DNA of 63,350 nucleotides, the filler included, from Collodictyon triciliatum (taxonomy: Eukaryota): assembly GCA_043381765.1 (NCBI GenBank). It is 8 parts of 8 records of this genome, joined end to end, with 100 filler letters (N's around TTAATTAATTAA, not from the genome) between each part and the next. Parts side by side here need not be neighbours in the genome. Positions count along the whole stretch, not along the records: positions 8,086 to 16,070 come from JBHJMP010003643.1; 7 more parts are not named here. One strand, written 5' to 3'. Positions 5,782 through 63,350 of the stretch are shown here, in pieces; within the stretch, counting starts at the first letter, position 1; each line of letters starts with the position of its first letter. A model generated the notes under the pieces. That model ran no database searches. It was given only the letters and a program-made list of their open reading frames with translations, and had not been told where the DNA came from. Position numbers and translations under genes: made by a program.

Positions 5782-6322
5782 TCGATGAAGCAGAGGCAGA
5801 ACTATCGCTCTGGCCAAACCCCTACACAGATGAGTATCTCTGCTGTCCAAGTTGAAACAAAGAGAACGCCTGAGTGCAGTGGTGATCAGCAGGTGAAAGT
5901 CTTGGCCGGCTCGAGGGACGCTTACTTGAATACTTTAGTGTTGTTGTTTTTTTGTATGTGGTCTTTTATTTCGTTTTTCTATTACAGAGAAAAGTAGATA
6001 AAGAATAAAGGAAAAGAGGACGAAAGAATAAGTGAGAGGGGGCAGCTGCACAACCAGTCAGCGAGAATGAGAATGAAAGGACGAGGGCCGGAGAGAATGG
6101 AGGTTGTGCCTGTCGACAAGGCCGCTTTTGCCATATAGAGGAATCAAAAAGAGAGAAAGAAAAGTGTGAGAAAAGAAAAGGAAAAAGATGAACCTGCCTC
6201 GGCAAAGTCGAGGATCAGCACCGCGAGAAATCAAAGGGCGAAGTAAGGAGGGAAGAAAAGAGCAGGGGGGGAAATGGGGTGAGAGAAGAGTGAGTACACT
6301 GCCGCATGTTCGGCATCCGTCC

Positions 6323-7795
6323 TCAAGGCTGCGCTTCCTTGTTGGGCAGCAGACATGACCCACGCTTCAGGTCTGTGATGAGAAACGGGCCAATCTTGTG
6401 TTGCAGCGTCTTCACAAAGGCAAAGCTGTGTTCTGTGGAGTCGACCTGCGCGCAGTGGTGATACTCGTCCGTCGTGATTCCAACCAGCTGCACAATTCGG
6501 ACAGCCCCGTTGGCCGTCTGAAGCGGCTCTAATTATTTTTATTTTTTTATTGTGTGATCAGTTGCAACAATCACAATCACAATCACAATCAATGTTATTA
6601 CGTGCCGATGCAAACAATTAAATTAATACTTAAATCGTACAAGATTCAGGAAGAAAGAAAGAAAAAGCAAACAAACCACTGACGCGATGAAAAAATGAAA
6701 AATAAATAAATAATAAAAATTAGAAAATCAACAAATGGATAGAAATTCAGCACAGACAGGCAGCACAAGACAGACCAGGAAACTGGGGGTCGGGCACAAA
6801 CAAAACCGCAGTCAGCTCAGTCTCCGGGCCGGCCTTGAGACTGAGAATGGGGCCGGGCAACAGCAGCGAAAGGCCGGGCACGATGGGGCCGTCTTCTGCA
6901 CTGGCGAGATAGTAGTGTGGCGGCAGGGGCTTCTTCGCCTGCAGCGCCAGATTCAGCAGCAGCTGGACGGGCCAATGCGGCGGGTCTTCGAGCGGGCCAC
7001 TTGCCGTGCTATTGCTGCCCAGCCCGGCCTTGGGCCCACCGGCACTCGCCTCGAATTCTACCGGGTCGCTGGTTTCAGCGCCTGTAGCTGTACTTGTACT
7101 TGTACCTGTGCTAGCGCTAATGCTTGTGACAAGATTGGGGTTGTGATTAAGGCTGAAACTGAGACCAGGGTTTGTGGGGGTGCCCAGATTGATGGGGTTC
7201 ACAGGATTTGCTGCTGGCGACGCGGGGGCATTGGTCAGTGCAATTCGCTGCGGCTGCGGCTTCACCAAAGACGGCTTCGCGTGGAGGGCGGGCGGTGCTG
7301 GCTTTGCTGCCGGTGGGCTCTGCTGTTTGGGTGTCGAGTTATGAATACATAGGTACATGGTCTCTTTGTTAGATTGGCGTGGGTGTGCGTGGGAGGTGGG
7401 TGAGGAAAGGTAATATGGGCAGAAACAAACTGGAGGCTCGATATTTGAGCTTGTGTTCGTGTTTGTGATGGTTGTGATGATGGTCGTCTCTGCGGGCTGG
7501 ACAGCTATTTGATTGAGATTCAGCCGCGGCAACTCCGAGACAGTGTTAACTTTGAGGACGCCGCGCTTCCATTTGACACCACAAGCATTGCAGAGCGTCC
7601 CTCGGCCGAGTGGCCCGTGTCGCCACAACACCGTCTGCTTTGCGTGGCAGTGTGTGCATCGACGTCCGTGCGAATCGCCCGTGCTGTTTGGCGGCCCCGT
7701 CGGTGGAATCAGAACAGGAGCTGCATTCCCGGTCGGAGCTGCAGGGACGATGCGCCGTGTCTGTGGAACTCGGATCGACAGCTCGATGCCCAGTC
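6323..7795 (-). CDS. Suppressor-of-fused (SUFU)-domain protein with an inserted GATA zinc finger; 5' end missing at contig edge
   Basis: Exons 7795-6776 (possible in-frame intron 7430-7323) and 6528-6323. SUFU motifs in order: GLGIELSIRV, PPHWPVQLLLNLA, LTAVLFVPDPQF, PLQTANGAVRIVQLVGITTDE, GPFLITDLKRG. GATA finger CTHCHAKQTVLWRHGPLGRGTLCNACGVKW (CX2CX18CX2C) lies between the first and second SUFU motifs. Confidence 0.85.
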
Positions 7796-7985
7796 CTGTA
7801 TGTGTTTTGGTTTCCCATTTTTAGATAAGCGGTGGTTTTTGGTTTTTGGTTTTTTGGTTTTTGTTTTGTTTTTGTATTTTTTTTGTTTTTTTGTTTTTTT
7901 ATTTTTTTGTTTTTTTGTTTTTTTGTTTTTTTGTTTTTTTGTTTTTTTGTTTTTTTGTTTTTTTTGTTTTTTTGTTTTTTTGTTT

Positions 7986-8085
7986 NNNNNNNNNNNNNNN
8001 NNNNNNNNNNNNNNNNNNNNNNNNNNNNNTTAATTAATTAANNNNNNNNNNNNNNNNNNNNNNNNNNNNNNNNNNNNNNNNNNNN
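7986..8085. other. Artificial contig spacer (44N-TTAATTAATTAA-44N); same spacer at 16071-16170, 24147-24246, 32222-32321, 40285-40384, 48353-48452 and 56415-56514
   Basis: Identical 100-bp linker with stops in all six frames. The first seven contigs are 7962-7985 bp, roughly in descending size order. Confidence 0.98.
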
Positions 8086-11000
8086 ATACCATTTATTCAC
8101 ACCTTCGTCATAAACGGTGCATCCAAAAACACCAAACACCTCTCTTGCGACCGAGTAGTATATAAAAAACAGAAGATTCAAGGTAATGAAAACAGCCTGC
8201 AATAAAAAATAATTTTCTATTACTACTAAAGATGAAACTGAAACAAAATGGAGATTTATAATTGAATATATTTTTTCATCCTTACTTTGTTCTGCTTGTG
8301 TCCATATCCGAAATAGTACGTAGCTGAGCCAACAATGATAAAGATTGGTATTCTTGCAAAACTGAACATCAGAGAAGCAAACACATCGTCTACTCCAAGG
8401 ACACAGGAAAGGCTGGGAAATTGAATTGAACCAATCGACGATGAGACTTCGATAAAGCTGTTTGCACTTTCTGAAAGAACGATTCCACCAGACACAATCG
8501 ACAGTGTTTGCATGTGGAACATGATTATCCTGAGTTTCGCTGAATGAAATATTCTGATTAATATGGAAAGAATAAAAGTGAAAATAATTAGTAACATTTA
8601 CCTGATTTTGATGTCTCTGTGAGATAAAGATAGCAAACGAACATAAAAAATCCAATCGAACCAAGAACCATGGTTGAATAAATCGTTCCTTTATCGCATT
8701 TCAAACATGACCTTCCGTGATTTCCGTATCCATTCTGGCATTTTGAGCAGGCATAACCTTCATAACCCTCTTGACAAAGGTCTGTGATTTCGACCGTCGC
8801 ACTTGAATTCGAAATTTTCTCTGGAATCGATAAATCACATGACTCGCGACGTGGACATGGCAGTATTGATTTCACAGACGTGACGCTTGGTGAAGCATAG
8901 CAGAATTTCAAGGACGTTCCATCAAGGCAATCACACCCTCTTGGGCATTGAACGCAGTTATTTCCAAAGCCAAAATATCCAGGCAAGCATTTACAAAATT
9001 CAAAGCCGTAGTATTCTGGATTCAAGTCAACCTCCAACTCAATCAGACCAGATTTCGAAATAATGGAAGGACAAAGGTAGCGTTTCGTTTCATCTTGGAG
9101 ATTGAAAGATGTTGTGAAATTCATGAAATCAGGAAGGAAATTAGCTGTTCCGTGATTCATCAATGTTTTGTTTAATCCCAGATACTCAAGCTTTGAAAAT
9201 CCGATGTATGATTCAGGAATGCTCCCAACAATCGGATTTCCAGTGAGGTCAAGGGAATTCCATCTCAATAGAGTTGTAAGGTCATCAAGCTTAGTGATGT
9301 TGTTATTCTTAAGGCTAAATGTTTTTATGTTAAGAACAAAGTCAAATATCCACCAATTCAATGCTCCATTCAATTGGTTGTCATCAAGCAAAAGGTTTTC
9401 ATAAAAGTAATCGTAATTCACTGAAGCTGGTGAGATGAAAGTACCAATGTCTCCTGAAAATGAGTTGTTTCTTAAGTCAATGGTGACTAAATTCGGCAGA
9501 TTCCAGAATAAATCAGGCATGCTTCCAGAGAATTTATTGTGGGATAAAACGAGTGATTTCAGCTCTGGCAGTCCCTGAAAATAGGCTGGGACTATGCCGT
9601 TCATTTTGTTCCAAGACAAGTCGATGTATTTAATTGATGGTAATTTCCAATTTTCTGGGATAGAGCCACTGATTTGGTTTTCGCTCACATCCAGTCTTGT
9701 CAGGTTATTCAGATTGAACATCGGTAATGTGCCTGACAGCTTATTTCGGAACAGTACTATTTCCTTGATTATTTTGCAATACTTGAAATCTGGGACCTCT
9801 CCCTCCAACTGATTCTCATAAACAGATAAAATCTCCAGTTTACACATATTTGAAAAGTTTGGAATTGCGCCTAAAATTACTCATTAATATTACAGGAAAT
9901 ATGAAATCAAAAGAAATAGAAAGGGAAAATAGTAGAAATCACCATTCAATCTGTTTCTATCAAGGTAAATTATTTCTGCATTTGGATTTCCATTAAAATT
10001 TGGAACGGTTCCTGTAAAAAAGTTAGTTTTGTATCAATACTACATGAAATTAATAATAAAACTCACCATCCAATTGGTTGTTGTCAAGAGAAATTATTTC
10101 AATATTTGGAATTCCACTGAAGTTTGGAACGGTTCCTGTAATATAAAGTTAGTTTTCATCAATAATACATATAATAATAGTATAACTTGCCAGTTAATTG
10201 ATTGCTGTAAATAGAAATCCTTTCAACATTTGGAATCTTACTGAAGTTTGGAACCGTGCCTGTAATATAAAGTTAGTTTTGTACCTATAATACATGAAAT
10301 AATAATAAAACTTACCATTCAACTGATTGCTGTAAAGATAAATTATCTTAAGATTTGGAATTCCACTGAAGTTTGGAACTGTTCCTGTAATAAAAAGTTG
10401 GTATACAATAAATAATACATAAAATAGTACTTAAAACTTACCAGTCAATTTATTGCTGAAAAGATACATTCTTAAAACTATCGGAATTTCACTGAAGTTT
10501 GGAACTGTTCCTGTATTATAAAAAAGTTAATTTTTATCAATAATGCATGAAGTGATAATTAAAACTTACCACTCAATTGGTTGCTATCAAGAGAAATTAT
10601 TTCTACATTTGTAATTCCGTTGAAGTTTGGAACTTTTCCTGTAAAAAAAAAAAATTAATTTTTATCAATAATACATAAAATTATTATAAAACTTACCACC
10701 CAACTGATTGCTGTAAAGAGAAATTATTTTAACATTTGGAATTCTGTTGAAGTTTGGAACGGTTCCTGTAATATAAAGTTAGTTTTGTACCTATAATACA
10801 TGTAATAATATAAAAACTTACCATCCAACTGATTGTTGGAAAGATAAATTATTTCAACATTCGGAATTCCACTGAAGTTTGGAACTTTTCCTGTAATATA
10901 AAAAAATTAATTTTCATCAATAATACATGAAATTATTATAAAAACTTACCAGTCAATTGATTGTTGTGAAGATAAATTCTTTCAAGATTTGGAATCCCAC

Positions 11001-12447
11001 TGAAGTTTGGAACTGTTCCTGTAATAAAAGGTCAGTTTATTAATAATGCATGAAATAATAATTAAAACTTACCACTCAACTGATTGTTGTAAAGGACAAT
11101 TCTTTCAAGATTTGGAATTCCACTGAAGTTTGGAACTGTTCCTGTAATAAAAAGTTGGTATACAATAAATAATACATGAAATAGTCATACAATTACCGTT
11201 CAATTGGTTGCTGAAAAGATACATTCTTGAAACTATCGGAATTTCACTGAAGTTTGGAACGATTCCTGTAATAAATATAAGTAAGTACTTGTACAAGTTC
11301 ACTTTTAATAAAATAGAAAAACAAACCATGAACTTTGCAGCTATAAATCCAAATAATCCGAATATTTGGCAACGCCGAGAAGTCAGGAAGAGTTCCTGAC
11401 ATGAAAAAATCATTAGAATTCAGAATAAATCATATTGGATGTTACTTCAAACCTGTGATTTTTTCACTTGCACCAATCCGGAATATCTTTAGCGACTGTA
11501 TTCCAGAAAAATCTGGTATTGTTCCTTCCAATTCATTTCCATCAATCGCAATATGTTCAATTTTCGGCACTCCTTGAAAGTCTGGAATCATTCCTGTAAT
11601 TAGATTCACAAAGAGATTCAGATACGTAATACTTGGGAGATTAAAGTCTGGAAGATTTCCGTAAATGAAGTTGTAGCTCATGTCCAAGGAATCCAATAAT
11701 TGAAATTTCTCAAAAATCGCAGAGGCAGCTTCAATGTCACCATTAAGATTGTTTTCTGACATACTGATTCTGAATATGGGACATGTGTTGTTCTATAAAT
11801 ATAAAGGAAAATATGTTAAGAATGAGATCAAAAGAGATTATTGTCATACTGGGAATACCTTATAATCCTCATCCAAACAGCTCTGATGACACGATATTCC
11901 ATACCAATCACAAATTGGAATACTTTCATTCTTCCATCCAGTGTTCCGGAACCAATTATCGCCGCCAAGTGAATCGTAAAGTTGGACAAGCAGTTCGTAT
12001 TGGGTCCCAGTAATTCCATCGGCCACATTTCGACTCTCTTTATTCTCCAACCCCCGTTCCCTGTTTCTACTTCGTTTAGGCGAATGGATTTCTTTGTAGA
12101 AATCGGCCTTACTAGATGTTAATTTTCTTCCGTAATTCCATTCAGCACCATGTCCATTTTCTAGCGAGTGTTCTCCATCTTTGCAGTCATTCATCAATAC
12201 TGAAAAGTTATCCTCATTCTCTTTTAACAAGGGACATGTCTCATCGTAGTGGCTCAACAGAATTTGGAACGCATCTTCGACTTTCATGGAAAGCAACTCA
12301 TCTCTTGAATACTGGCATCTGTTTTCCTTATTTGAGTCGAAAGTGTACTCTATAAAACATCATAATCAAAATATACCTTTGACGTGGATGAATTGAGGAT
12401 GCCGATGAAACGATGAAAAGGATGGCAACGAAGGCAACCAAAAGCAT
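8086..12447 (-). CDS. LRR receptor-like protein: signal peptide, LRR N-cap, many LRRs, Cys-rich (EGF/furin-like) region, multi-pass TM domain; 3' end truncated
   Basis: Signal peptide MLLVAFVAILFIVSSAS. N-cap LYDSLGGDNW...ICDWYGISC. Plant-type LRRs LxxLxLxxNxLxGxIP. Cys-rich CKCLPGYFG..CVQCPRGCDC, CQEGYEGYACSKC. TM region KLRIIMFHMQTLS and YYSVAREVFGVFGC. Confidence 0.88.
9943..11395 (-). repeat. Array of twelve 69-nt single-LRR exons with short phase-1 introns; eleven units (about 125-bp period) are similar in both exon and intron
   Basis: Exon consensus GTVPNFSGIPNxxxIxLxxNQLx. Introns share GTAAGTTTT...TTTCATGTATTAT...TTTTATTACAG. Confidence 0.93.
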
Positions 12448-15400
12448 CGAATTTCTGGTTATATATTTAAATTAAGACTAATTAATCAAATGTATTTATC
12501 GCAGATTGAATTATGAAACGCACGTTGCAGGAATTTCGGGAGATGTCCTTCTCGATTCGAAGAAATTATTGCGTTGGAAAATGGTTGTTTTTTCGTCTGT
12601 TGAGTGCATTTCTATCCTATTGTAACCAATTTCTCAGTATAAGTAGAATATCATCAGTTCTGCTGATATTTTATTCACCAAACATAGGAATATTCAGCAA
12701 ACTTGATTTCAAGAATACTCACTATAAAATAAAGTAATTCTCAAATTGAAGCTTAATTTTGTGTCTATTTATCGAATATTATTGATTTTTCGTGTGATAT
12801 AATGTTGATACGATGAAAATAATGCATTATTTATAAAAATAAATTAACACAAACATATTGCGTAGAAAAAAATGAATTAATTTATTAGTGTATAAATTTA
12901 TTTTCATTATTTGATTTGATAATTTTTTTACATTCACCGTCTTATTTTTATTTTTAACTTTCCTTGTAATAAATCAATCTCATATCCGTAAACCACTTGT
13001 CTTTTTCGTACACTCATATCACGATTCACTATTTATAATCTTCTCTCATATTTCAATTTCCAATAAACCAGATAAATAATATATTATTCAGCATCTCGTG
13101 ATATTCACCGATAAGCCAAAACGTATGATTGTAAATACAAATGAATTTTGATAGATAAGAGTATCATGAGTTTTTGCTTCATATGAGTTGATTAACGACT
13201 AAAATAATTAAAAGAGAATGACTCTATTTTCATAAAATCGTTGTGACGGCTAGAACTTTAGTCATTCCTAAAATTATAAATATCAGTTCCAAATTATATA
13301 AAAAATGTTCATTATTGTTGCATTCGTATAAATTGTTATTCATCATAATGAAAAATGTTAGGATAAGAACCATTTATTTGAATCACATTAGTGTTAACCA
13401 TATAGTTACACAGTAATTAATCAAACAACCAGAGGTTAAAACAGCCATATTATCAGATAATTTATAATGAGTCAATTATTAAAGAAACCCTGTTTGCTTG
13501 AGTTTATCGAATAATTATTAAATGAGAAAATTGATATTGCCCTGGAACATGGCTTCCGATAAAATTTGTTCTGGATTTAAAAGTCTAAAATTGAGTATAT
13601 GAAATCTTGCTTCAGTTAGCTGGATTATTAAATGTTTTAGAACTATGCTTACTCATGAAGCACAACCATATGTGTATGGAAATGGCCAAGCGATGAGTCA
13701 CATCCTAATATTCGGTAAACTTACATAAACAACTGATTGTAATAACAAAATATGATGTTTTGTGAGAGCTGGGTATCATCTCTAAGAGGTTCAATTATAA
13801 GCAATAATTTTCACTATAGATTTTCATGTATCTTTTTCATCGTGATTATTTCATTCTCTATAAAAAGGCTCTCAATTTGGATTCAAATCAACCAACTATC
13901 TTAAATCCAATCGTATGTCAGTTTCCATATTCATATTATTCATTATATAAAAACCAGCTATACAAATCAAAAGCAAAGCATTGATTAGTTATATAGATAA
14001 AAATTTGACTATATTCTTTTGGCTATTAATAACGATATGTTTTATGTAAATATTATATTTCATTGAACTCTAAACCATGTCATTTTTAAATTCATTTGGA
14101 ACCCAAGATAAAATCAGTGTTTATAAAAAGCTAAAACTCATGATACGAAAATAATAATAAAAGGTATTGATAGCATTCAATTTACAAGCACAATCATTTC
14201 AAGAGATATTATAAAACTGAAAGTCTAGCTATTCCATTGGTTTAAATTTCTATCAATGCAGACGAATTGAATCCTTGTATTTGAATATTTGATAAAAAAT
14301 GAATAATATAGATTATCAATAAAATTGTATATGCATTAATACTTGTACTCGGCCATATTTTGACCAAATAGGAATAAACCGAACAATATCAAGGATTCAT
14401 TAGAATGATAGAATCATCGATATGAAACAATCATAGAAGCCATACTGTATGTGGTGGATTAACTAAATAAATCATTCAGAGAATCAACATAAATATACGA
14501 AAATATAAATTGTATGCATAAAAAGGGGTTTTTTTTATTATATTTGAACGATGGTAGTCGTAAAACAAAATAAGGGCGTGAACCGTCTACCATATCCTCG
14601 GTTAGTCAGGGGAACATAATAATACATATAACAAATACCTTTTCATTACCTCTGAATCATTTGAAATTGGAAGGGGGAGGGTGGGTTTGTTGGATTTGAT
14701 AAATTGACATCTAAATAACCAAGGGAGAAAATGAAACTAATTTAGATGATTTAACGATTAATTATCAAATAGGTTTATTTATTGAGCGATAAACTTAAAA
14801 ATCATTTTTCCTTGGAGAAACGAACAAGGTCTAGTTAGGTGAGGGGTATGGAGGTGAATTTGTGGACAAAATATTGCAGGTCAGTCAAGGGGAGGGGTGG
14901 TGTATCATTCAGCGGCAAACTGGTTTTCAGCGGGGATATGGTATGTGTTTTTCGATTTGGACATAATAATGTTCATATTTTGGTTTGTTGGTTTTTTAAA
15001 ATTCACTTTTGATGCAAAAGCGTATCTATTAAATTAACAAAACCTATTTTTTTTCTTTATTTTATTCAAAGTGTATTTAGACGGAATGTAAAATACGGAT
15101 ACCAAGAATCTGCAGATAACTAAGCTTCTCTAGTAGATACGCAATTTAAATATTTTTCCGTATATTTAGTATTCATAAGGCGATACATAAAACGATTATT
15201 GAAAAAAAACTACATAGCGATGCAGATGTTTTAGACAGACAATTCATCTTCATTAAAATTTATTAGCGAATATATAGCTGATATTATTGTATTTATTGTA
15301 AGCATTACAATGATTGATTACATGCATTTTATGTTAGGATTAAATCTATCAACTGAATAATGAAATAACTAGGATGGCCAGACTCCGATGATAGTTCTTA

Positions 15401-16170
15401 ATTTTATAGATTTTGTACTATCATTAGTAATGGTTTTACAACTGAAATATTTTTAATTAAAATATTCGAGTTAGTACATGCTGTATTTTATATGTTAAAT
15501 AGGTAACGTTTTCAAATTAAATAAAGTCTCCTTACCACAAGAAAGGATACATGACTCTCGATTACAAAAATTTACAACGAATATGATTTTTTTAATTTTT
15601 TTGGTCATTAATGACTGGACAAAGACATACATACTTCCACACACAACACAACCAACACCCCCACCGTACGTTCTTAGACCTTTACTCCAGGCCATCGGGA
15701 AAACTAGGAGCCGCCGATCCACCACCCCTCCTCCAAGTAGTAGATCGAAACAGTTCCCTTTCCCACGGATTTTGTCTTTTGTCCTTTCCATTTTCAACTG
15801 TATCAGAGTTTTTCCATGACTTAAGTTTGAACATTCTCCGATTCAAGATTAATAATTAGCGCTTAATATGGTAGATGGAATAAAATAATGGGCTTTTTCA
15901 GCATGTCCATGAAGTTTTCAGATTGAACCATTTATCAAAACGAGACCTAAATTAAGAATGAAGTTTGATTGATAATCTGCTAAAAATTAGGCTTTACACA
16001 TGTACTTAAAATGTGCGTATTTGGCTTTTCTATCGTTGAATATCAAGCACGTGACGAATTTTCTGTCGTANNNNNNNNNNNNNNNNNNNNNNNNNNNNNN
16101 NNNNNNNNNNNNNNTTAATTAATTAANNNNNNNNNNNNNNNNNNNNNNNNNNNNNNNNNNNNNNNNNNNN

Positions 16171-23960: not shown

Positions 23961-25817
23961 GATACAAAATAAAACGATTAACATAAAAGCAAAAAGCAAA
24001 AAGCAAAAAGCAAAAAGCAAAAAGCAAAAAGCAAAAAATAAAAAATAAAAAATAAGAAATCAAAAATAAGAAATCAAAAATAAGAAATCAAAAATAAGAA
24101 ATCAAAAATAAGAAATCAAAAATAAGAAATCAAAAATAAGAAATCANNNNNNNNNNNNNNNNNNNNNNNNNNNNNNNNNNNNNNNNNNNNTTAATTAATT
24201 AANNNNNNNNNNNNNNNNNNNNNNNNNNNNNNNNNNNNNNNNNNNNTTTTGTTTTTTTGTTTTTTTGTTTTTTTGTTTTTTTGTTTTTTTGTTTTTTTGT
24301 TTTTTTGTTTTTTTGTTTTTTTGTTTTTTTGTTTTTTTGTTTTTTCGAGCGTTACATGTCTCGTCACCTGACTAACAAGATGGATATGTGTTTTGGGTTA
24401 GCCTCTTCGGTAACGAAGGACTTCATACTTCGACATCGCTGAAGTCAAACAAGCGATATTTGACATATGTTAAATACATGTGTGTGTTTTTTTTTTATGA
24501 AATCATTTACGAGTAACATGTGTATTTACAACAAAGTGCAAATAACCCAAACATTTATATGCGATTTTAGAATTTGCGTCGCTTGATGAGGGCCAGTATA
24601 TTAAGGTTTTTTTTATTCTCCAGCACAATCCTCCGTCCTCCATCCTCCATAGTCAATATTGATACACTTTTGATTGATAATTCATTATTATTATTTTTTT
24701 TAAAAAAAAGTCCCAAAAAAAGCTTGGTCAAAAATAACGAAGCGAGCGAACGAAAACACGCAGCCTTTCCGCCTGGGAATACAAGTATTTCAATAGTTTA
24801 TTTCTTCCATACGATTTCCCGCTCACCTTGGTCGTATTTATGTATTTTGATCGTGCATTCTTGTATCCCCATAATTCGTCAATCACTCAAAATTATAGAG
24901 CAGATTGAAATAATTCTAGCGATTTTAACCCCAAATAAAATCGTTTGAAATATTTGAATAATGTTTCTGACTGAACTTTTTTACGCTGAAACTCCAGAAT
25001 ACTACCTTCCAAGTATCTCTCCTTGCACAGAGAAACCTCAGCATCATAGAAAAACGTAGATTGCATTCATTTTTTTATTTTTATCAACTTGTCCGATATG
25101 TGATGAAATACCATTAAAATACTTTCTATTTAAATAACAGAAGGGGAGCTCAACTCTTTGATAATTTGGAAGTGAGTTCCTTCTCTCTTTTTTATAGAAA
25201 AAACAAGTAGATGAGTTAATAACATTATCCGTATTATTTTTCTAAACTAAATTATTCCCACTTTATTTTATCCCAGCGCACCCAAGCTTACGGTAGTGTA
25301 TTTTTTTAATGTAATTTTGAACCTTCCAAATCGATGACTCATGTATGAATCACAATATCAGGAACTTCTGGAGGAAAAATACCAGAGATGAAACCAGTGA
25401 GCTTAATTATCCTAAACTTATCCGCATGTATCCTACCCTTAAATTTTACCTATCGATCGTATTCTCTGTTTAACCTGTGTTATAATCTAAATAGGACTAT
25501 ACACCTTATATCTGTGCTGAAATGCAAATGATAGAGAGGTTCTCATTATAGATATATTCATTTTTAAAAGAATGATGTAAACCACCATGCGTCGCTATTT
25601 AATAAGCTAATTCTTTTTGATATCTCTTTTAGCGACGTTTCCATTAAACCCAGAGAGTTGGATAATAATAAGACTTGCAAAGTTGTACCTGAGAAGAGAG
25701 TACCAAAAGGATACTTTTGCAAGTATTATCAATATCAGATAATTAATATTAAAAAAAAAAGAAGGAACTGCCATCATTTCTTCACACCAGACGTTAATTG
25801 CCCCTAAACTTTATTTT

Positions 25818-28800
25818 ATGAAAAAAAATCACGCCAAAAAATGAAGAACAACTGGTCTGGACAAGTCAATTTGCCTCAGAAATCTCTCTGCGAAAGTGGT
25901 CATCTTGTTTACATGTCTTCTAGTTGCCTGTACGCATGGAAGGTCGTATATAATTTCGTAATAAATCGTTTTAATTTTTGAGTGTTGACCTTTTTTATAC
26001 GAATTTCAGAAAAGAGCGCTCCAGTGCGTGCGAGTACAGCCGAGAGGACCTTCTATCCATGAAAATTGAAGAATCTATGTATCTACTTCTCGATCTTCAT
26101 AGCGATATATGCCCTCATCGGCCATCAGAAGGATTCGGAATTGACCAATACGAAAGCGCTCTTCTCCATCAAAATACACGACAATTTTATGACTCTGAAA
26201 TTTTATTACTAAACAACAGTCCATCCGAAAATAACCAAATACATAACCACGGAAGCCATCGATTTGTGAACGAACATCTCCTAGGAGAACTGCATGGGCA
26301 TCAAAGCAAGATGTCTCATGATTCTACAAGGAATGATTCTAACGAGCTCTGTTCATCAGAAGTGTTAGAGCGAAAACTTCTTAATCAGCTCTACAGTACC
26401 CTAAATGGAGATAATTGGAGCAATAAATCTGGCTGGACAAATACTTCTGTTCCAATATGTGAGTGGTTTGGGATAGAGTGTTACCCCCAATGCAGCGTCG
26501 AAATGGTTAAAGTGAGCACCGTATTTTAGAAATATGTTTTTTTTAATCCATTCACATATAAAAATATAATTCAGTAAAATCGCTATTACGCATGTAGAAC
26601 GACCTTTGCTCTGTGATAGGTATTCTTCTGCCAGGGAATAATCTTGATGGCAACATTACTATTGTGGGCGAAATATTGGAGCAGTTCTCTTATATCCAGA
26701 GGATTAACTTGAGTTTGAACTCAATTTTTGGGGATATACCTAACCTGAATCTGACTACGGTGACATATTTGAACCTAGTCAATAACCAGATAACGGGAAC
26801 TTTACCTGATTTTAGCGGAATGAAGTACATTAAATCATTGTGGGTAGATAAAAATCTGAATGAAGGAACTATTCCAAATTTTTCAAATATACAAATGGTT
26901 CAAAGTTTAAGAATAGGGGATAGCAAGAACATTTATGGTATGTGATGAGAGGTTAAGTGCATCGAAAAAAAACATACCATGAAGAAAAATAATCGAACTT
27001 GTAATATCTGCTTCAAAATAGGTTCCGTTCCTAACTTCAACAACATTAGTAGCGTCTCATTACTTGGAATTTATGGGTGTCAGTTGGAGGGTTTGTTCGT
27101 CAATTTACCTTGCTTCATACCTATTTTAAAACAAAAAGTGTATCCAATTTCTTCGTGTCATAGGAACCATACCAGAGTTCGATGATATCCCTATTCTCGA
27201 AAGCCTCTATTTGTATGACAACATCCTGTCAGGTTCTGATATTTTGACTTTATTCAAACATATCCATAATTTTATTTTACAGCTTAGTGGTTGTGAGTCC
27301 TGTCAACTCTGCGTATATTTATCCATAGATAGTACCGCATGCACTTAAATTAATTTATGTTTGTATTCTTAAGGAACTGTGCCAAACTTCAAGTTGCATC
27401 CTCGGCTGAGTGTTTTATCTATTTTTGGAAATAGACTAACAGGTTTGGTGCCGGTACAGACAAATGCATATTCGTTTGTAATTCTTTGTGCACTCACAAA
27501 CATTTTTCAACAGGCACAGTTCCAAACTTCGACTCGATTCCAAACTTATCTTTAATATCAGCCTCCAGCAACTACATTGATGGTATACATTTGTTGGTCA
27601 TTGTTTCCTCTGTTTTCAAGTGCTTAAAGTAATCATATATTAGGGACAATACCTGATTTCAGCTACGTTCCACAAATAAGTTTTATCGGCCTACCAGATA
27701 ACCTTTTAACTGGTTTGTTCTACTTGGATATCAGATCTAAAGTACCTTTCCTTTTCTTAATACTGACTAAATGCTACGAATATTATATAAAATGGTGTAG
27801 TTATGACTAAAGTGTAAATAATTAACCACCTTATACCCAAGGAACCATTCCAAAGTTCAGCTCTATTCCTTTCGTTGAGACCCTCTTCCTATATAGCAAT
27901 TTTCTCAATGGTAAATTCTGGATAATATGAAGAATTTAAATATGCTTGTAAACACACATCGAAGCACAATCATATATAATGATGTTTAAATTAATGATTA
28001 GGCACAGTACCAGAATTCACAAATATGCCAAACATCTTTCTCATAGACATATCTGTCAACATGTTGGAAGGTAAAAAAAAAAAAAAAGACACTGCATTAT
28101 AAGATAAAATAATGCGCATATACTTATCATTCTATGATATCCGTATTCTACAGGAATAATACCGGATTTTGTGAACATCAGTTCAATCGTACAAATCAAC
28201 TTGTCGGATAATCTTATCAATGGTGCGCCTCATTGCCTTTCGAGGAAAATCATTTATGAAAAAAAAAAACGACAGAGAATAGCACTATTAACTTATTGAG
28301 CCTTTTCAATAAATTAGGAACAATCCCGACTTTATCTCAGCTAGTGTATTTAAAGGAGATTTACGTAAATGAAAATAACATTACGGGGACAATACCGTCA
28401 TTTACCGACTCTCCATCACTAGAGGTTATATCTTTGTTCAGAAACAACTTGTCTGGAGGCTTGCCCAACTTAATGTTTCAATCTCTTAAAAGGATTGACT
28501 TCAGTGAAAATGTCATATCAGGTTCCATTCCTCATTTATGGAGCGTTCCTTCCATTCAATATATTGACCTTTCCATGAATAATCTGCGTGGGACTGTCCC
28601 AAGCTTTTTCCAAAATTTGCATGAATTGAAGTCACTCTCATTGGCTTGGAACTGTTTGAGTGGGAGAATGCCCTATAATTTTTGGGGGTTGGCCAACTTA
28701 GTTTCGATTGACTTGAGTCACAATATGTTCTCGGGTGATGTTGGAGTGTTCATTGTACCCAATGTAAATATCTATACGTACTATTACGAAATATTGCTTC

Positions 28801-31263
28801 TAGATTACAATCGTCTTAGTGGAGAAATTAATTGGAGACTCTTCAACTTTCTAACAAATCTAAGAATCCTAAGTTTGAAGGCCAATCAGTTATCAAAACT
28901 CGACGATGTCACCAAATTAATGAAATTCACTTTCATTCACCTTTCCAAGAATCCTCTGATTGGCAGTATTCCTTTCTCTTACAACAATTTTCCAAAGCTT
29001 CAGTATCTAGGAATCAGAAATACATCACTCAATCACGGAAGCGATACCTTGTTACCAAGCTACATGAACTTCATGCCGCCATACAATTTGCAAGAAAAAA
29101 ATGAGCTCTTTGTTTGTCCCTCAATATTTTCGAGAGTCGGTATTGTTGAAACAGAGGTAGATATTGACCCATCGTATTACGATTACGAATTCTGTCAATG
29201 CCTTCCAGGATTTTTCGGGCTCGGAAAAAAGTGCGTGGCGTGCCCAAAAGAATGTGAATGTAAGGACGGAGTGTCACTGAAGTATTGCCACCCCTCACCA
29301 AATATCACTCATATACGTGATGTTCATGTTTGCCCTCGACCAGAATCGTGCCATATAATCCTCCCAATTAAATATTCTAACGTCTCGAAATCGTCGCAAG
29401 TGACCAACTTATGCGAAGAAGGTTACGAAGGCCATAGCTGCTCAAAGTGCAAAGACGGATATGGCGCTCAAGGGAGAGCATGTGTGAAATGCCAAAACGA
29501 TGAGACAGTAACTACTTATGCAATTGGCTCAGTTGCTTTCGCTCTCTTTCTTATGTACCTCTACTTATTTGAGAGGTCATCGACTGGTAAGCGTCTTAGT
29601 TTAAATGGGCGTGATGTCATTTTTTTTATATTCTGAGTGTGATGAATTCGCTCTATTCGAAATATTAAACTCAATTGATTTATAGCCAAGCTGCGGATAA
29701 TCCTCTTTCATATGCAAACGTTGTCAGTGATATCTCCTGTGTTGGTTCAATCAGACAGCGCCAGATTTTTCATCGAAGTCTCTTTCTCCATCGGCTCAAT
29801 TCAGTTCCCAAATAACTCATGTCTTCTAGGTTCGACAGGTGCCTTTGAACTCCTAGTGCTCAGTTACATCAGGATACCCATATTTACCCTCATCGGGTTT
29901 GCAACATATAGGCTGGCATCTGGAAATCTACAGAACAAGGTACCATAAACCGAGTAACTAATTGTGTGGCTATATTAGATTTATAAACAGGTCACTATCT
30001 ACACCACTAGGCAGTTTTCATCACCTTCAACCTTTTGTTTTTTATTTACTACTCGATTGCCAAAGAAGTCTTTGGTGTATTTGGATGCACTGTGCACGAG
30101 GGACTTGAAGTCTGGTACTTAAACTACGCACCTTGGATTGAGTGCAGTCCAGCATCAGATGAGTACTTAAAAATGATTGCAATATCGATTCCTGTTTTTT
30201 TCTTGTTTTTGTTGGGGTATCCGCTGTTGGTGTGGAGTAAAGTCCGGGAAATGAATGAAGATTCGCCGTATGATAGCAAGGCGCGTTACGGATTTTTGTT
30301 CCTGCCTTATAAGCGGGTATGTATGCGATGTCTTTTTTCTTTTACTTTTTACTTTTTTACTTTTTACTTTTTTCCTTTTCACTTTTTTCTTTTCTCATTT
30401 CTTTATCTTTTCTTTATCTTTTTCTTTATCTTTTCTTTATCTTTTTTCTTTATCTTTTTTCTTTATCTTTTTTCTTTATCTTTTCTTTATCTTTTCTTTA
30501 TCTTTTCTTTATCTTTTCTTTATCTTTTCCTTTTCACTTTTTCCCTTTATTTTTTCTTTATCTTTTCTTTATCTTTTCTTTATCTTTTTTCTTTATCTTT
30601 TTTCTTGATCTTTTCTTTATCTATTCTTTATCTTTTTTCTTGATCTTTTCTTTATCTATTCTTTATCTTTTTTCTTCACCTCCTTATTTTGAATCAACTT
30701 TGCGCTTATCTCGGCAGAGCTACAAATTCTGGGAGTTTATCGTGATTATGCGACGTTTGGCATTCTCTTTTGCTACGAGCCTTCTCCCATACACACAGCC
30801 GCATATGTTTTTCCTTTTCTTAGTGGTCATCATACAGGTGATTATTTCTATATCTAGCTCTGTGATTTTTGTATTATTTATGTTTAGTATTTTCATATAA
30901 TTGTTGTATTTCAGCTAGAACCGCGCCATATTACCAGAAATCTAACCCCACTTCGTTTGCTCTCGATGCCAGACTTCTATTTTGCTGCAGTCCCAACACA
31001 AACCATACCAAGCTAAACTAGAGAATCAGATGGAACATTCCAGTCTGATTCTCATCACAATATCGTATCTTCTTGCCCTCTTGTCTACTTTCCTTGGGTC
31101 GCAACTCTGGCTGTCCTGGTTCTTTATCCTTCTGAACACTGGTTGGTTGGTATGGGCGGTGGGCAAGGCATTCGTCATCCCATTCACAAAGAGAGAAAGG
31201 AGTATCAAGTCCACCCTCATCGCCATGAAGCGATACAAAAGACATGAACCCTTATTGAGTTAA
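25818..31263 (+). CDS. LRR receptor-like multi-TM protein, paralogue of 8086-12447; start codon uncertain
   Basis: Same architecture: CEYSREDLLSMK, LYSTLNGDNW..ICEWFGIEC, eight 69-nt LRR exons (27022-28222), Cys-rich region, then KLRIILFHMQTLS, WYLNYAPWIEC, YGFLFLPYK, FWEFIVIMRR and KPYQAKLENQME (TRP/PKD-like C-terminal TM motifs). Stop at 31261-31263. Confidence 0.85.
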
Positions 31264-32321
31264 AACACACGCCGGTGTTTGCCAAAACCAAGGACAACCT
31301 GAACAGCCCACTGGCAGGCAAATATCTTTATACCCAAATCTTCTAATCTTGATATGAGAAAAAAATAGAATAAATAAACTGGCTGCTTTTACAAATACTG
31401 TATTTGGAAGAAATATTTGATACACAGAATGATTGAGTATTACCAGAATCACTTTACATTAAACTTTCTTCTTTTAATATGATTATTAAAGAATTGCTTA
31501 GGATTATATGTTCCGTTAAACCAAATGTTAAATGTGAAGCAAGCTGCATCATTATCATTAAAAAAAAAAAAAAAAGGCAATATACAATCTTTCTTTCTGC
31601 CGTACTTTTTTTTCATATTTCGAAGCCAAATAGCGACCAATGCCACTGATGTCCAAATAATTGATTCCGCTGTTTTCGGATTTTTTTTTTAACATCAAGA
31701 GAGACTGAATTCAATCGAGGTATGCACAAGGAAGTTATATTGCGTTCAGGGTCTCAGTTTTTCTTCATTTTATCATGTTAAGGAGGAAGAATCGAATGGG
31801 TTTCAACTTCAACCATTTGCTGTCCTAGAGAGCACGTAGAATGTCCTCATATTCCCCTTTCCTAGACAAGAAACATACATATATTGAGTGTGAAGATGAA
31901 CTGAAAAAGGATAAGACACTGGTCATCATTATGTATTTTTCCTTTCCAAACAAGCTAGAATTACGAGGACAAGGTCTTTTTACATGAAACATGTACCTTT
32001 TACTTTGATAACTCCTCTGTCCCTCAACTCAAACGTGCCCATTAGTTTTAAAGCCACAGTCTCTGTCACCTGTAGATGCCCAATTTCTGAGTGGCTACAC
32101 ATGCGAGAGGCTATATTGACCCTAGAGCCATATCAGTTAGTCTTTCGTCACCCTTGAAAAAGTCCTGTTTATCAACAATAGCAATAGTGCCACAAAAAAA
32201 AAAAAAAAAAAAGGAAAAAGGNNNNNNNNNNNNNNNNNNNNNNNNNNNNNNNNNNNNNNNNNNNNTTAATTAATTAANNNNNNNNNNNNNNNNNNNNNNN
32301 NNNNNNNNNNNNNNNNNNNNN

Positions 32322-40284: not shown

Positions 40285-40384
40285 NNNNNNNNNNNNNNNN
40301 NNNNNNNNNNNNNNNNNNNNNNNNNNNNTTAATTAATTAANNNNNNNNNNNNNNNNNNNNNNNNNNNNNNNNNNNNNNNNNNNN

Positions 40385-48352: not shown

Positions 48353-49260
48353 NNNNNNNNNNNNNNNNNNNNNNNNNNNNNNNNNNNNNNNNNNNNTTAA
48401 TTAATTAANNNNNNNNNNNNNNNNNNNNNNNNNNNNNNNNNNNNNNNNNNNNAAAAAACAAAAAACAAAAAACAAAAAACAAAAAACAAAAAACAAAAAA
48501 CAAAAAACAAAAAACAAAAAACAAAAAACAAAAAACAAAAAACAAAAAACAAAAAACATGTCGCTGGTGCAAACTTCGAATCAAATAAAGGTGAGAAAAA
48601 CCATAAAAGCACAAACACAAATGTTTGCTTGGCAACTTTTTTTGTAGGGAGAAACCATCAAACCACCACAGACATGACAAATTGTTATTCACAGGCCCAA
48701 ACACACCGATGGATTTAGAAAGAGCGGGCTCTTCGTTACGAAGAAGGACACCATCCGGCCCCTCAGCATTAGCAGCCGATCCTGCGCCAAATACCTTGGA
48801 AATAGTTGGTATTTGTTCATTGTTTTGTACTTTATTGGCCACAGTCGTTTTGGATGGGTTTTTGATATGTGCAACATGCACACTATATGCAGCAGAAAAA
48901 GGCAAAATAATAATACAATATTGGTCTAGGAGGCCGTGAGGACACTTCGCTCGAATACAAAGTAGGCCAAAAAATCCATTCTTTGAATGAAAAAAAAAAA
49001 AAAAGGAGAAAATGGAAAAGAAAGAATGGTGCTTATACAAAATAGATATTCATATGCTGCATCCTTGTCATGTGTAGCAAAGTTCTTTGCATGAATACCT
49101 ATTTATCATCAACCACATGAAATAACCTTGATGAAAGTAGAGATAGAACATTTGCTTTTCATCACAAAATTTTGTTAAGTCGATATTTGAAATCGAACGA
49201 AAGGACAAAGATGCAAAAATAGAAATATCCTGGAATGCAAATCCATCAAGCAATTTTGTT

Positions 49261-56207: not shown

Positions 56208-56687
56208 CACTAAAAAAGTTATTACAAAATAATGATAGTGAGTCAGACAATATATATAATGAAATGAACAAAACAAAACAATAAAGAAAAAGAAAAAGAA
56301 AAAGAAAAAGAAAAAGAAAAAGAAAAAGAAAAAGAAAAAAACAAAACAATAAAAAAAACAATAAAAAAAAAAATAAAAAAAAATAAAAAAACAATAAAAA
56401 AAAAAAAAAAACAANNNNNNNNNNNNNNNNNNNNNNNNNNNNNNNNNNNNNNNNNNNNTTAATTAATTAANNNNNNNNNNNNNNNNNNNNNNNNNNNNNN
56501 NNNNNNNNNNNNNNAAAAAAAAAAAAAAAAAAAAAAAAAAATAAAAATCAAAAAAAAAAAAAAAAAAAAAGACAATAACAAAATCTTATCTTTGTATGCG
56601 TTGACTTGTTAACTCTGTTTATTTTTCTTTGTGTTCTTTTTTTTTTAAAAAATAATTATCTTATTCTCTGTGTGAATAATCACACAG

Positions 56688-62537: not shown

Positions 62538-63350
62538 GGATTGATGGGTTCACTTTTTATCTTATTTTATTTTATTTTTACTTGTTTTCTTTTTTATTTT
62601 ATTTTTACTTGTTTTTCTTTTTTATTTTTACTTTTTATTTTATTATTATTTTATTATTATTTTTCCTTTTTTCTTTTATTATTTTCTTTTCATTTTTCTT
62701 TTATTATTTTCTTTTCATTTTTCTTTTATTATTTTCTTTTCTTTTTTCTTTTATTATTTTCTTTTCTTTTCTTTCATTTTTATTATATTTTTATTTTAAT
62801 TTTTATTCTTACTTGTTTTTCTTCTTTTCTTCCACTTTGATTTGATCTGGCGTGTTTCTGATGGGCTGCGGATGAGATTTAAATGAATGCAAAAGAAGGC
62901 TGCAGTAACCTCGTATAACGAATATCACTATTATTGGATTATATTATTTTTGGAAATGTTCGAATGCAGCGAAGCTTCTGGAACTGTGTCCATTTGTGGA
63001 ACCATTTATGCTTGGCTGTGTTTCTTGTGTTGCTGATCTCGAATGTTTTACTTTTTGTTTGAGCCTCGGTTTTCTGTGGAGCCCAACTTTTGCAGAGGCC
63101 GCCGAACAACAGGACGACTCGCAGACGAATCTCTTATCGACACCGTTTGAGCCACTGCCTATCCTCTCTTCTCTTCATATTTTTTCTATTTTACTTTTCT
63201 CAGTCGTTTTTTGTTTTTTGTTTTTTTATTTTTTGTTTTTTTATTTTTTGTTTTTTTATTTTTTGTTTTTTGTTTTTTGTTTTTTGCTTTTTGTTTTTTG
63301 CTTTTTGTTTTTTGTTTTTTGTTTTTTGTTTTTTGTTTTTTGTTTTTTGT

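Follow-up and report, generated by a model that had tools for sequence, protein, structure and literature searches.

How did a tandem array of similar coding exons come to occupy the middle of a single gene, and does it generate diversity in a recognition receptor? These questions are raised by a locus in the assembly of the eukaryote Collodictyon triciliatum (GCA_043381765.1). The window (that is, the whole stretch of DNA that we analyzed, 63,350 nucleotides with filler included) consists of eight ~8-kb contigs chained end to end, and neighbors in the window are not necessarily neighbors in the genome. The array is located in the piece at positions 8086–16070 (JBHJMP010003643.1), in a gene for a leucine-rich repeat (LRR) protein that we designate gene A; a sister paralog, gene B, is located on another contig of the window. 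An initial annotation of the array described recently amplified LRR exon–intron cassettes and regarded them as part of a diversifying recognition-receptor system.

We propose that cassettes were amplified or homogenized in a receptor-like gene after its split from gene B, with constitutive use of the cassettes and neutral change at their variable (x) positions; we assign this account as a whole a probability of roughly 70%. The ancestral gene would already have encoded one LRR per 69-nt, phase-1 exon; after the A/B split, eleven of the twelve cassettes of gene A, together with their introns, would have been replaced or homogenized by concerted evolution, with a single cassette or very few as the source and with the 125-bp units exchanging sequence through unequal crossing-over, gene conversion, or both; a tandem array and a cassette count four off that of gene B would be the outcome. 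The units would afterwards have drifted apart by 10–35%, the scaffold residues under purifying selection (ω ~0.1–0.3) and the x positions, including those on the concave β-sheet face, at about the neutral rate. If all of the cassettes are spliced constitutively, as we infer, they would form one long LRR solenoid, putatively the extracellular portion that binds the ligand in a surface receptor or adhesion protein whose membrane domain may signal.

The array is the sole long-period array detected in the whole window by Tandem Repeats Finder (TRF; period 125, 10.7 copies, 78% matches, score 1405; coordinates in Table 1), and the strand has to be corrected: its host gene reads on the minus strand. 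In 9943–11395, 12 of 12 exons are exactly 69 nt and all are phase 1-1, the symmetry previously claimed for them; each is preceded by AG, and the donor is GT in eleven and GC in one (10189–10190, in the GC-AG intron that follows cassette u9). The introns between the twelve cassettes are 61, 55, 54, 59, 56, 58, 59, 57, 56, 55, and 55 nt. Each exon encodes one 23-residue LRR, with the Gly of a G-x-V-P-N-F motif as its first residue. Eleven cassettes with their own 54–59 nt introns make up the 125-bp tandem array, so the count of eleven similar units in the initial annotation is right for the array; the range that it assigned to them (9943–11395) contains twelve cassettes, however, the first of which is divergent.

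The exons of the eleven array cassettes share 65–90% nucleotide identity (mean 0.789), and their ten intra-array introns are clearly homologous (normalized local alignment score 0.56 vs 0.21 for shuffled sequences). The first cassette, A0, is just 51–61% identical to the remaining cassettes and was spared by homogenization. All eleven array units conform to the LxxLxLxxNxL core, in that positions 12, 15, and 17 are hydrophobic while 20 is Asn and 22 is Leu; A0 deviates with Cys 20 and Val 22, and a Cys in place of the expected Asn is also found in the first cassette of gene B and in unit 5 of P0001, a related protein from Diphylleia rotans. The eight β-strand variants named in the initial annotation are all present, and the exons at 10316 and 10067 contribute two more. 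A 29-nt cassette motif (≤3 mismatches) has eight matches in the window, all within the array and all coding, and zero matches in any of 100 shuffles; searches with this motif found no cassette copy on the noncoding strand or inside introns.

The array region is predicted to be the middle of the ectodomain-coding part of gene A, which would encode, in order, a signal peptide, an N-terminal region, an LRRNT cap, ~27 LRRs, and a Cys-rich stalk ahead of a multi-pass membrane domain of ~10 helices. The gene model joins exons by their GT/GC-AG sites, reading frame, and colinearity with homologs; the spliced frame is open for 1111 residues, from an ATG at 12447 to the contig end at 8086, and residues 11–1111 are colinear with residues 40–1101 of P0001 (38% identity). 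The hydrophobic N-terminus is a putative signal peptide, as judged by eye. The LRRNT_2 family of Pfam is matched with E = 2.7e-4 (21.6 bits, cutoff 20.7), and the LRR_1 (64.7 bits) and LRR_8 (66 bits) scores exceed the curated cutoff; all of these scores come from the exons that flank the array. The LRRs are plant-type, mostly 23 residues long, with a G-x-[IVL]-P-x-F start. A DUF7630 match in the Cys-rich stretch is below threshold. We matched no kinase family and no single-helix anchor, the LRRs being followed instead by the Cys-rich region and ~10 helices, and a Roc-COR GTPase domain was not found in gene A, gene B, or their relatives.

The age of the array can be judged by comparison with gene B. 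We modeled gene B in 26010–30121, that is, trimmed to the visible end of gene A, and took the later exons, to a stop near 31263, from the list of open reading frames (ORFs); the layout of the modeled part is the same as that of gene A, with equivalent Pfam LRR/LRRNT_2 matches, and for its signal-peptide-like first exon no in-frame start codon was found. A tree built from the C-terminal 306 residues groups A with B as its sister (support 100/99) among the Diphylleia paralogs; the two proteins share 48.7% identity over 981 residues. The eight single-LRR exons of gene B occupy the same place in the protein as the cassettes of gene A and are separated by introns of 61–141 nt. Their mean nucleotide identity is 0.476 (range 0.32–0.61; 38% in protein), and their introns align no better with one another than shuffled copies do (local alignment score 0.135 vs 0.129 shuffled; 0.172 vs 0.172 shuffled for introns of A against those of B), that is, the cassettes are old and their introns unrelated. 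Since the sister gene thus carries exons of this same kind that diverged long ago, the one-LRR-per-exon design is ancestral and predates the A/B split.

The similarity within the array, introns included, is younger than that split: the synonymous p-distance has a mean of 0.35 within the array (range 0.105–0.75), whereas in the flanking exons of A and B it is 0.78–0.82 and saturated. The amplification or homogenization is therefore lineage-specific and later than the gene duplication; the word ‘recent’ in the initial annotation holds only in this relative sense, no units being closer than ~90%. The array units of gene A also have no position-by-position match to the units of gene B or P0001 (0.35 on the diagonal vs 0.36 off it), whereas the flanking LRRs do match by position (0.37 vs 0.27); the identity among array units is 0.67, compared with 0.35 among the central LRRs of the D. 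rotans proteins. The cassette counts of the sister genes (12 in A, 8 in B) mean that whole cassettes have been gained or lost in frame, the capacity previously read from their symmetric phase: between the LRRNT and Cys-rich anchors, gene A has 699 residues and gene B has 607, and the difference, 92 residues, is exactly 4 × 23.

The units do not look like the product of one tidy series of duplications. The pairwise homoplasy index (PHI) test on ten aligned exon + intron units is significant (p = 0.0035 and 0.0055), exon similarity and intron similarity disagree between unit pairs, and traces of multi-unit blocks persist: the mean identity is elevated at an offset of six units (0.83 vs ~0.77), and the two-unit block 10140–10396 is 86% identical to 10646–10902, an offset of four units. 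Together, these indicate repeated exchange between units. The initial annotation had proposed block duplication or conversion from the resemblance of one pair, the units with exons at 11197 and 10442; this pair is not the closest as a whole unit (0.89, vs 0.91 for the 10822/10316 pair). Its exons are 90% identical, in a tie with those at 11073 and 10950, and its downstream introns are 88% identical, behind those after 10822/10316 (95%) and after 10950/10697 (92%). The array is best explained by 125-bp units that underwent unequal crossing-over, gene conversion, or both.

The anchor span of gene A equals that of P0001 exactly, and gene B is colinear with the partial P0137; as A and B form a sister pair, one or both of these matches must be convergent. 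The spans of other paralogs are 293–893 residues. We also considered a conserved LRR count with pure gene conversion, based on the equal spans of A and P0001; this idea is weakened by the four fewer cassettes of the sister gene B.

A different explanation for the differences among the units is that the array is a diversity generator for an immune-like recognition receptor, with positive selection on the binding face and with cassettes that vary between strains or by skipping. Taking positions 13, 14, 16, 18, and 19 of the 23-residue unit as the concave face, amino acid change is indeed 2–3 times denser there: the proportion of non-synonymous differences (pN) is 0.32 at these positions, 0.10 in codons 1–11, and 0.17 in the other codons of 12–23. 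However, the ratio of pN to its synonymous counterpart (pS) at the concave positions is 0.84, and the Jukes–Cantor-corrected ratio (dN/dS) is 0.79. These values show no non-synonymous excess at the concave positions, the outcome that the initial annotation had itself named as contradicting its idea of diversifying selection when it suggested a comparison of dN/dS among units. pS is 0.305 in the 5′ half of the exon and 0.398 in the 3′ half; we considered whether the fixed 5′ half has undergone localized conversion or is constrained by a splicing enhancer, but set both ideas aside, as this gap is too small to claim either.

Codon models fitted by likelihood to the same units (23 codons × 11 units; F3x4 frequencies, FastTree topology, all branch lengths free) also lend that explanation no support. 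Model M0 (log likelihood, lnL, −417.32; ω 0.51) fits far less well than M1a (lnL −407.43), in which 57% of the codons have ω 0.11 and 43% have ω 1. The maximum-likelihood ω of the variable class in M2a is above 1 (1.30 for 42% of the codons; lnL −407.09), as expected for a binding face under positive selection, but with 23 codons and 11 units M2a brings no gain over M1a from its positive-selection class (2ΔlnL = 0.69, p = 0.71). The profile of this ω, within 3.84 units, extends from ~0.7 to 2.4; a value of 0.5 is rejected, as are values of 2.5 and above (2ΔlnL = 4.24 at 2.5). The variable class consists of positions 2, 8, 12, 13, 16, 18, 19, 21, and 23; it lacks position 14 and includes five positions (2, 8, 12, 21, and 23) that are off the concave face. 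The claim that variation is focused on the binding face thus describes the density of amino acid change but not the extent of the variable class. The per-position entropy of the array is correlated with that of the old cassettes of gene B (Spearman 0.63, p = 0.001); the simplest reading is that the varying positions are those that any LRR tolerates changing.

Other observations could be cited for an immune-like diversity generator, that is, the different cassette numbers of the sister paralogs, the large family to which they belong in the nearest sampled relative (with a member on two of the eight contigs of the window), a design that parallels the ROCO genes of brown algae, for which positive selection and alternative splicing are reported (PMC3341825; PMC11378527), and the single GC donor, which could weaken the inclusion of one exon. 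Against these, 18 pairs of Trinity isoforms from the D. rotans relatives have no indels of a whole LRR; the differences are truncations at the termini and, in one case, an internal gap of 12 residues. Neither diversifying selection nor exon skipping nor an immune function of the array is supported, and we regard this explanation as unlikely.

Constitutive use of the cassettes, as the amplification account has it, is the pattern to which the predicted transcript points. Inclusion of all twelve gives the 699-residue anchor span that is found in the transcript-derived P0001, and the array introns are similar in size to the other introns of gene A (57–89 nt, from the exon coordinates); from the splice signals, the normal intron size, the P0001 span, and the isoforms of the relatives, all of the cassettes would be used in series. 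The array does resemble a Dscam cluster, with tandem exons of equal length, similar sequence, and symmetric phase, and mutually exclusive or alternative use of one or a few of the twelve per transcript could be imagined. Such use is barely credible here: unlike in Dscam clusters, the exons are apparently used in series, judging from homolog colinearity, given that gene B and the Diphylleia proteins carry the corresponding LRRs one after another; each cassette has complete splice sites and the introns (54–61 nt) are normal for the gene; and removal of eleven LRRs would make the ectodomain shorter than most of the family spans that we tallied.

The sequence of the array could in principle be an artifact, with repeats collapsed, expanded, or misordered in a short-read assembly that is fragmented (~8-kb contigs). 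External support was provided by four freshwater-metagenome runs from three studies, in which contigs of ~80–260 nt match gene A, some at 100% and others at ~90% identity; freshwater samples therefore seem to contain the organism as well as close variants or paralogs. Contigs of 151 nt from these other public runs are 100% identical over 9744–9894, 9772–9922, and 9984–10134, which argues against a gross artifact at the 3′ end of the array, and another matches 9878–10027 with a single gap. The metagenome contigs cover parts of the array only, and one of 264 nt departs from the window at 10017, but just 21 letters match beyond the join. However, the units are distinct enough for unique assembly (65–90% identity), and all 12 exons retain their length, frame, and splice sites; we consider an artifact very improbable. 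As separate observations, the short contigs match parts of gene A in 9744–10134 and 11473–11835; the apparent metagenome joints 10017→11042 and 10696→11041 have 21–22 matching letters on one side, with unmatched letters between, and were not counted; and the single match of the cassette motif in the metagenome contigs, in a bacterial ABC-transporter locus, is a chance match.

Several points weigh against the proposed history of post-split amplification and neutral change. The tree of the short (69-nt) cassette sequences leaves 16 of its 21 inner branches without resolution and does not unite the eleven array units in one clade; the array label needs three changes on this tree, and a single origin occurs in 0 of 200 bootstrap trees. 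The change in count may be either a gain of four cassettes in A or a loss of four in B. Strong positive selection is excluded, but weak positive selection (ω up to ~2.4) is compatible with the data; the codon test has low power for its size, ignores the recombination detected by PHI, and compares repeats, not alleles. The metagenome contigs bridge at most one junction each, and independent confirmation covers only the 3′ end of the array. The exon models of both genes are predictions from splice sites, frame, and homolog colinearity. As for the membrane domain, the truncated model of the relative P0160 (pLDDT 70) has no Foldseek match with E ≤ 1e-3, and its best match (VIA, Z 5.8) belongs to generic helical bundles.

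The closest relatives of gene A are proteins of D. rotans from the EukProt transcriptomes, with P0001 matching its large exon at E = 8e-146 (41% identity, 98% of the query covered). These relatives (P0001, P0145, P0146, and others) have the same full-length colinear architecture at 35–45% identity, with ~10 membrane helices, and they share with gene A the Cys pattern and the motifs conserved in the membrane domain; the family tree places gene A among the D. rotans proteins. Among 1.84 billion proteins, a 166-residue query (the Cys-rich stalk and first helix) matched 172 cluster representatives with E ≤ 1e-3, 44 of them with E ≤ 1e-10; of ten that we looked up, eight are from D. rotans and two are unnamed metagenome proteins (62% and 50% identity). 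A large family in the nearest sampled relative is therefore indicated, and genes A and B place a member on two of the eight contigs of the window. A full-text literature search found no paper that pairs Diphylleia with ‘leucine-rich repeat’.

The solenoid fold was tested on the AlphaFold model of a relative, P0139, instead of the gene A protein: this model (pLDDT 83.6) has an LRR solenoid followed by ~10 helices, and the solenoid superposes best on RGFR1 (Z 22.7, root-mean-square deviation 2.3, 224 residues). LRR matches filled both result lists in the search with full-length P0139, so these lists bear on the solenoid. The membrane domain is without a Pfam family; PF06011 (TRP-like) matches weakly in 3 of 16 relatives (best E = 6.5e-4), and an Atlas cluster with PF06011 in 25% of its members scores 0.95, but the structure searches with the P0160 model gave no match that would back these leads. 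Three relatives (P0005, P0153, and P0135) have two or three LRRNT anchor motifs each before the same Cys-rich and membrane module, and P0005 also bears FG-GAP repeats; therefore, the ectodomain of the family is modular.

The array is a known kind of LRR gene growth, its mechanism common with brown algae and Tetrahymena, while exon size, phase, lineage, and host protein differ. The precedent that the initial annotation mentioned does exist: the ROCO genes of the brown algae Ectocarpus and Saccharina have one LRR per 72-nt exon, and exon shuffling, positive selection at concave sites, and alternative splicing are reported for them (PMC3341825; PMC11378527); the second paper also points to glycoprotein-hormone receptors of vertebrates, whose LRR exons it cites as another example (PMC11378527). 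The Collodictyon genes are like the ROCO genes in encoding one LRR per exon of constant length divisible by three and symmetric phase (all twelve in gene A and all eight in gene B), in starting the exon at the Gly of a G-x-x-P motif, in placing the variable residues at the same concave-face positions of the register, and in differing in LRR number between paralogs. They are unlike them in having 69-nt exons and 23-residue repeats, extracellular LRRs on a multi-pass membrane protein instead of a cytosolic Roc-COR GTPase, no significant positive selection (M2a vs M1a), and no cassette copies on the noncoding strand or in introns (29-nt motif).

In Tetrahymena, LRR genes number in the thousands, and their arrays consist of phase-2 exons of exactly 90 bp, reportedly built by unequal crossing-over (PMC6564038). 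There, as in gene A, intragenic tandem units of exon plus intron are recognizable in the nucleotides, intron phase is uniform, copy number differs between paralogs (in-paralogs in Tetrahymena), and the origin is attributed to unequal crossing-over; in contrast, gene A has 69-nt, phase-1 exons that each encode exactly one LRR, and its introns are of background length (~56 nt) whereas those of young Tetrahymena arrays are long (PMC6564038).

The closest resemblance in fold is to the LRR receptor kinases and receptor-like proteins of plants (FLS2, PEPR1, RGFR1, PGIP), with which gene A shares an LRRNT_2 cap and the G-x-I-P motif, and on whose ectodomains the LRR model of the family member P0139 superposes best (Z 20–23). 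Plant-type LRRs are generally 24 residues long, whereas the repeats here are 23; also, the kinase and the single-pass anchor of those receptors are replaced by a Cys-rich stalk and ~10 helices. The D. rotans family shares the LRR/Cys-rich/multi-pass architecture, but it is known from transcripts alone, and its central LRRs are diverged (0.35) instead of homogenized.

The window holds a natural before-and-after pair, with old, diverged cassettes in gene B and eleven cassettes overwritten by later amplification in gene A; the pair allows the growth of an LRR solenoid, its homogenization, and the rates of divergence of scaffold and binding face to be measured. As it stands, the locus is an ordinary though clean case of tandem exon amplification, and its interest comes chiefly from this built-in paralog comparison and from an uncharacterized receptor family in a lineage that, judging from the relatives found, is represented by transcriptomes only. 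A bolder and rather doubtful idea is that genes A and B sample a large, fast-turnover repertoire of surface LRR receptors for prey or microbe recognition in a freshwater protist that is related to Diphylleia and little studied, in which amplified, reshuffled, and possibly skipped cassettes would provide new binding surfaces and a new ten-helix, possibly channel-like domain would signal; if it were true, cassette-based LRR diversification would have arisen independently for a third time, the earlier cases being brown algae and Tetrahymena. Should strain or RNA data show variable use of the cassettes, cassette-based receptor diversification would extend to another branch of the eukaryotes.

Table 1. 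Features of genes A and B, in window coordinates; exon models are predicted.
Feature	Position	Strand	Remarks
Tandem array, 125-bp units (one exon + one intron each)	9941-11275	-	TRF
Cassette A0, divergent, 69 nt, phase 1-1	11327-11395	-	One LRR
Cassette u1, 69 nt, phase 1-1	11197-11265	-	90% identical to u7
Cassette u2, 69 nt, phase 1-1	11073-11141	-	
Cassette u3, 69 nt, phase 1-1	10950-11018	-	
Cassette u4, 69 nt, phase 1-1	10822-10890	-	Downstream intron 95% identical to intron after u8
Cassette u5, 69 nt, phase 1-1	10697-10765	-	
Cassette u6, 69 nt, phase 1-1	10570-10638	-	
Cassette u7, 69 nt, phase 1-1	10442-10510	-	
Cassette u8, 69 nt, phase 1-1	10316-10384	-	
Cassette u9, 69 nt, phase 1-1, then GC-AG intron	10191-10259	-	
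Cassette u10, 69 nt, phase 1-1	10067-10135	-	151-nt metagenome contig spans 3′ junction
Cassette u11, last array unit, 69 nt, phase 1-1	9943-10011	-	Next intron unrelated to array introns
Gene A exon 1: start codon and hydrophobic N-terminus	12377-12447	-	GT donor; frame runs into exon 2
Gene A exon 2: N-terminal region closing in LRRNT cap	11859-12318	-	Pfam; colinear with P0001
Gene A exon 3: first five LRRs, no introns between	11453-11792	-	Pfam LRR_1, LRR_4, LRR_8
Gene A large exon, 1269 nt: ~10 more LRRs, Cys-rich stalk, first membrane helix	8602-9870	-	Pfam LRR_1 5e-19
Gene A membrane-helix exon	8286-8539	-	Colinear with P0001
Gene A last visible exon, cut by contig end	8086-8196	-	~200 membrane-domain residues missing
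Gene B, sister paralog, other contig	26010-31263	+	Motif scan of six frames
Gene B, eight single-LRR exons, 69 nt, phase 1-1	27022-28222	+	Starts 27022, 27164, 27374, 27514, 27644, 27842, 28002, 28154

Elsewhere in the window, the seven spacers between contigs (7986–8085, 16071–16170, 24147–24246, 32222–32321, 40285–40384, 48353–48452, and 56415–56514) each consist of 44 N, a 12-nt linker with stops in all frames, and 44 N. The contig termini are often simple repeats of the T5–7G/A5–7C type or homopolymer runs (e.g., 7843–7985, 24247–24345, 48453–48558, and 63206–63350) and are probably assembly break points; within gene B, an intron at ~30320–30680 is filled with T/C-rich simple repeats. On the minus strand at 6747–7820, a GC-rich ORF (~50% GC in 6001–8000 vs 30–36% in adjacent windows) encodes a GATA zinc finger (Pfam E = 2e-12) amid low-complexity Pro/Thr/Ala-rich sequence.

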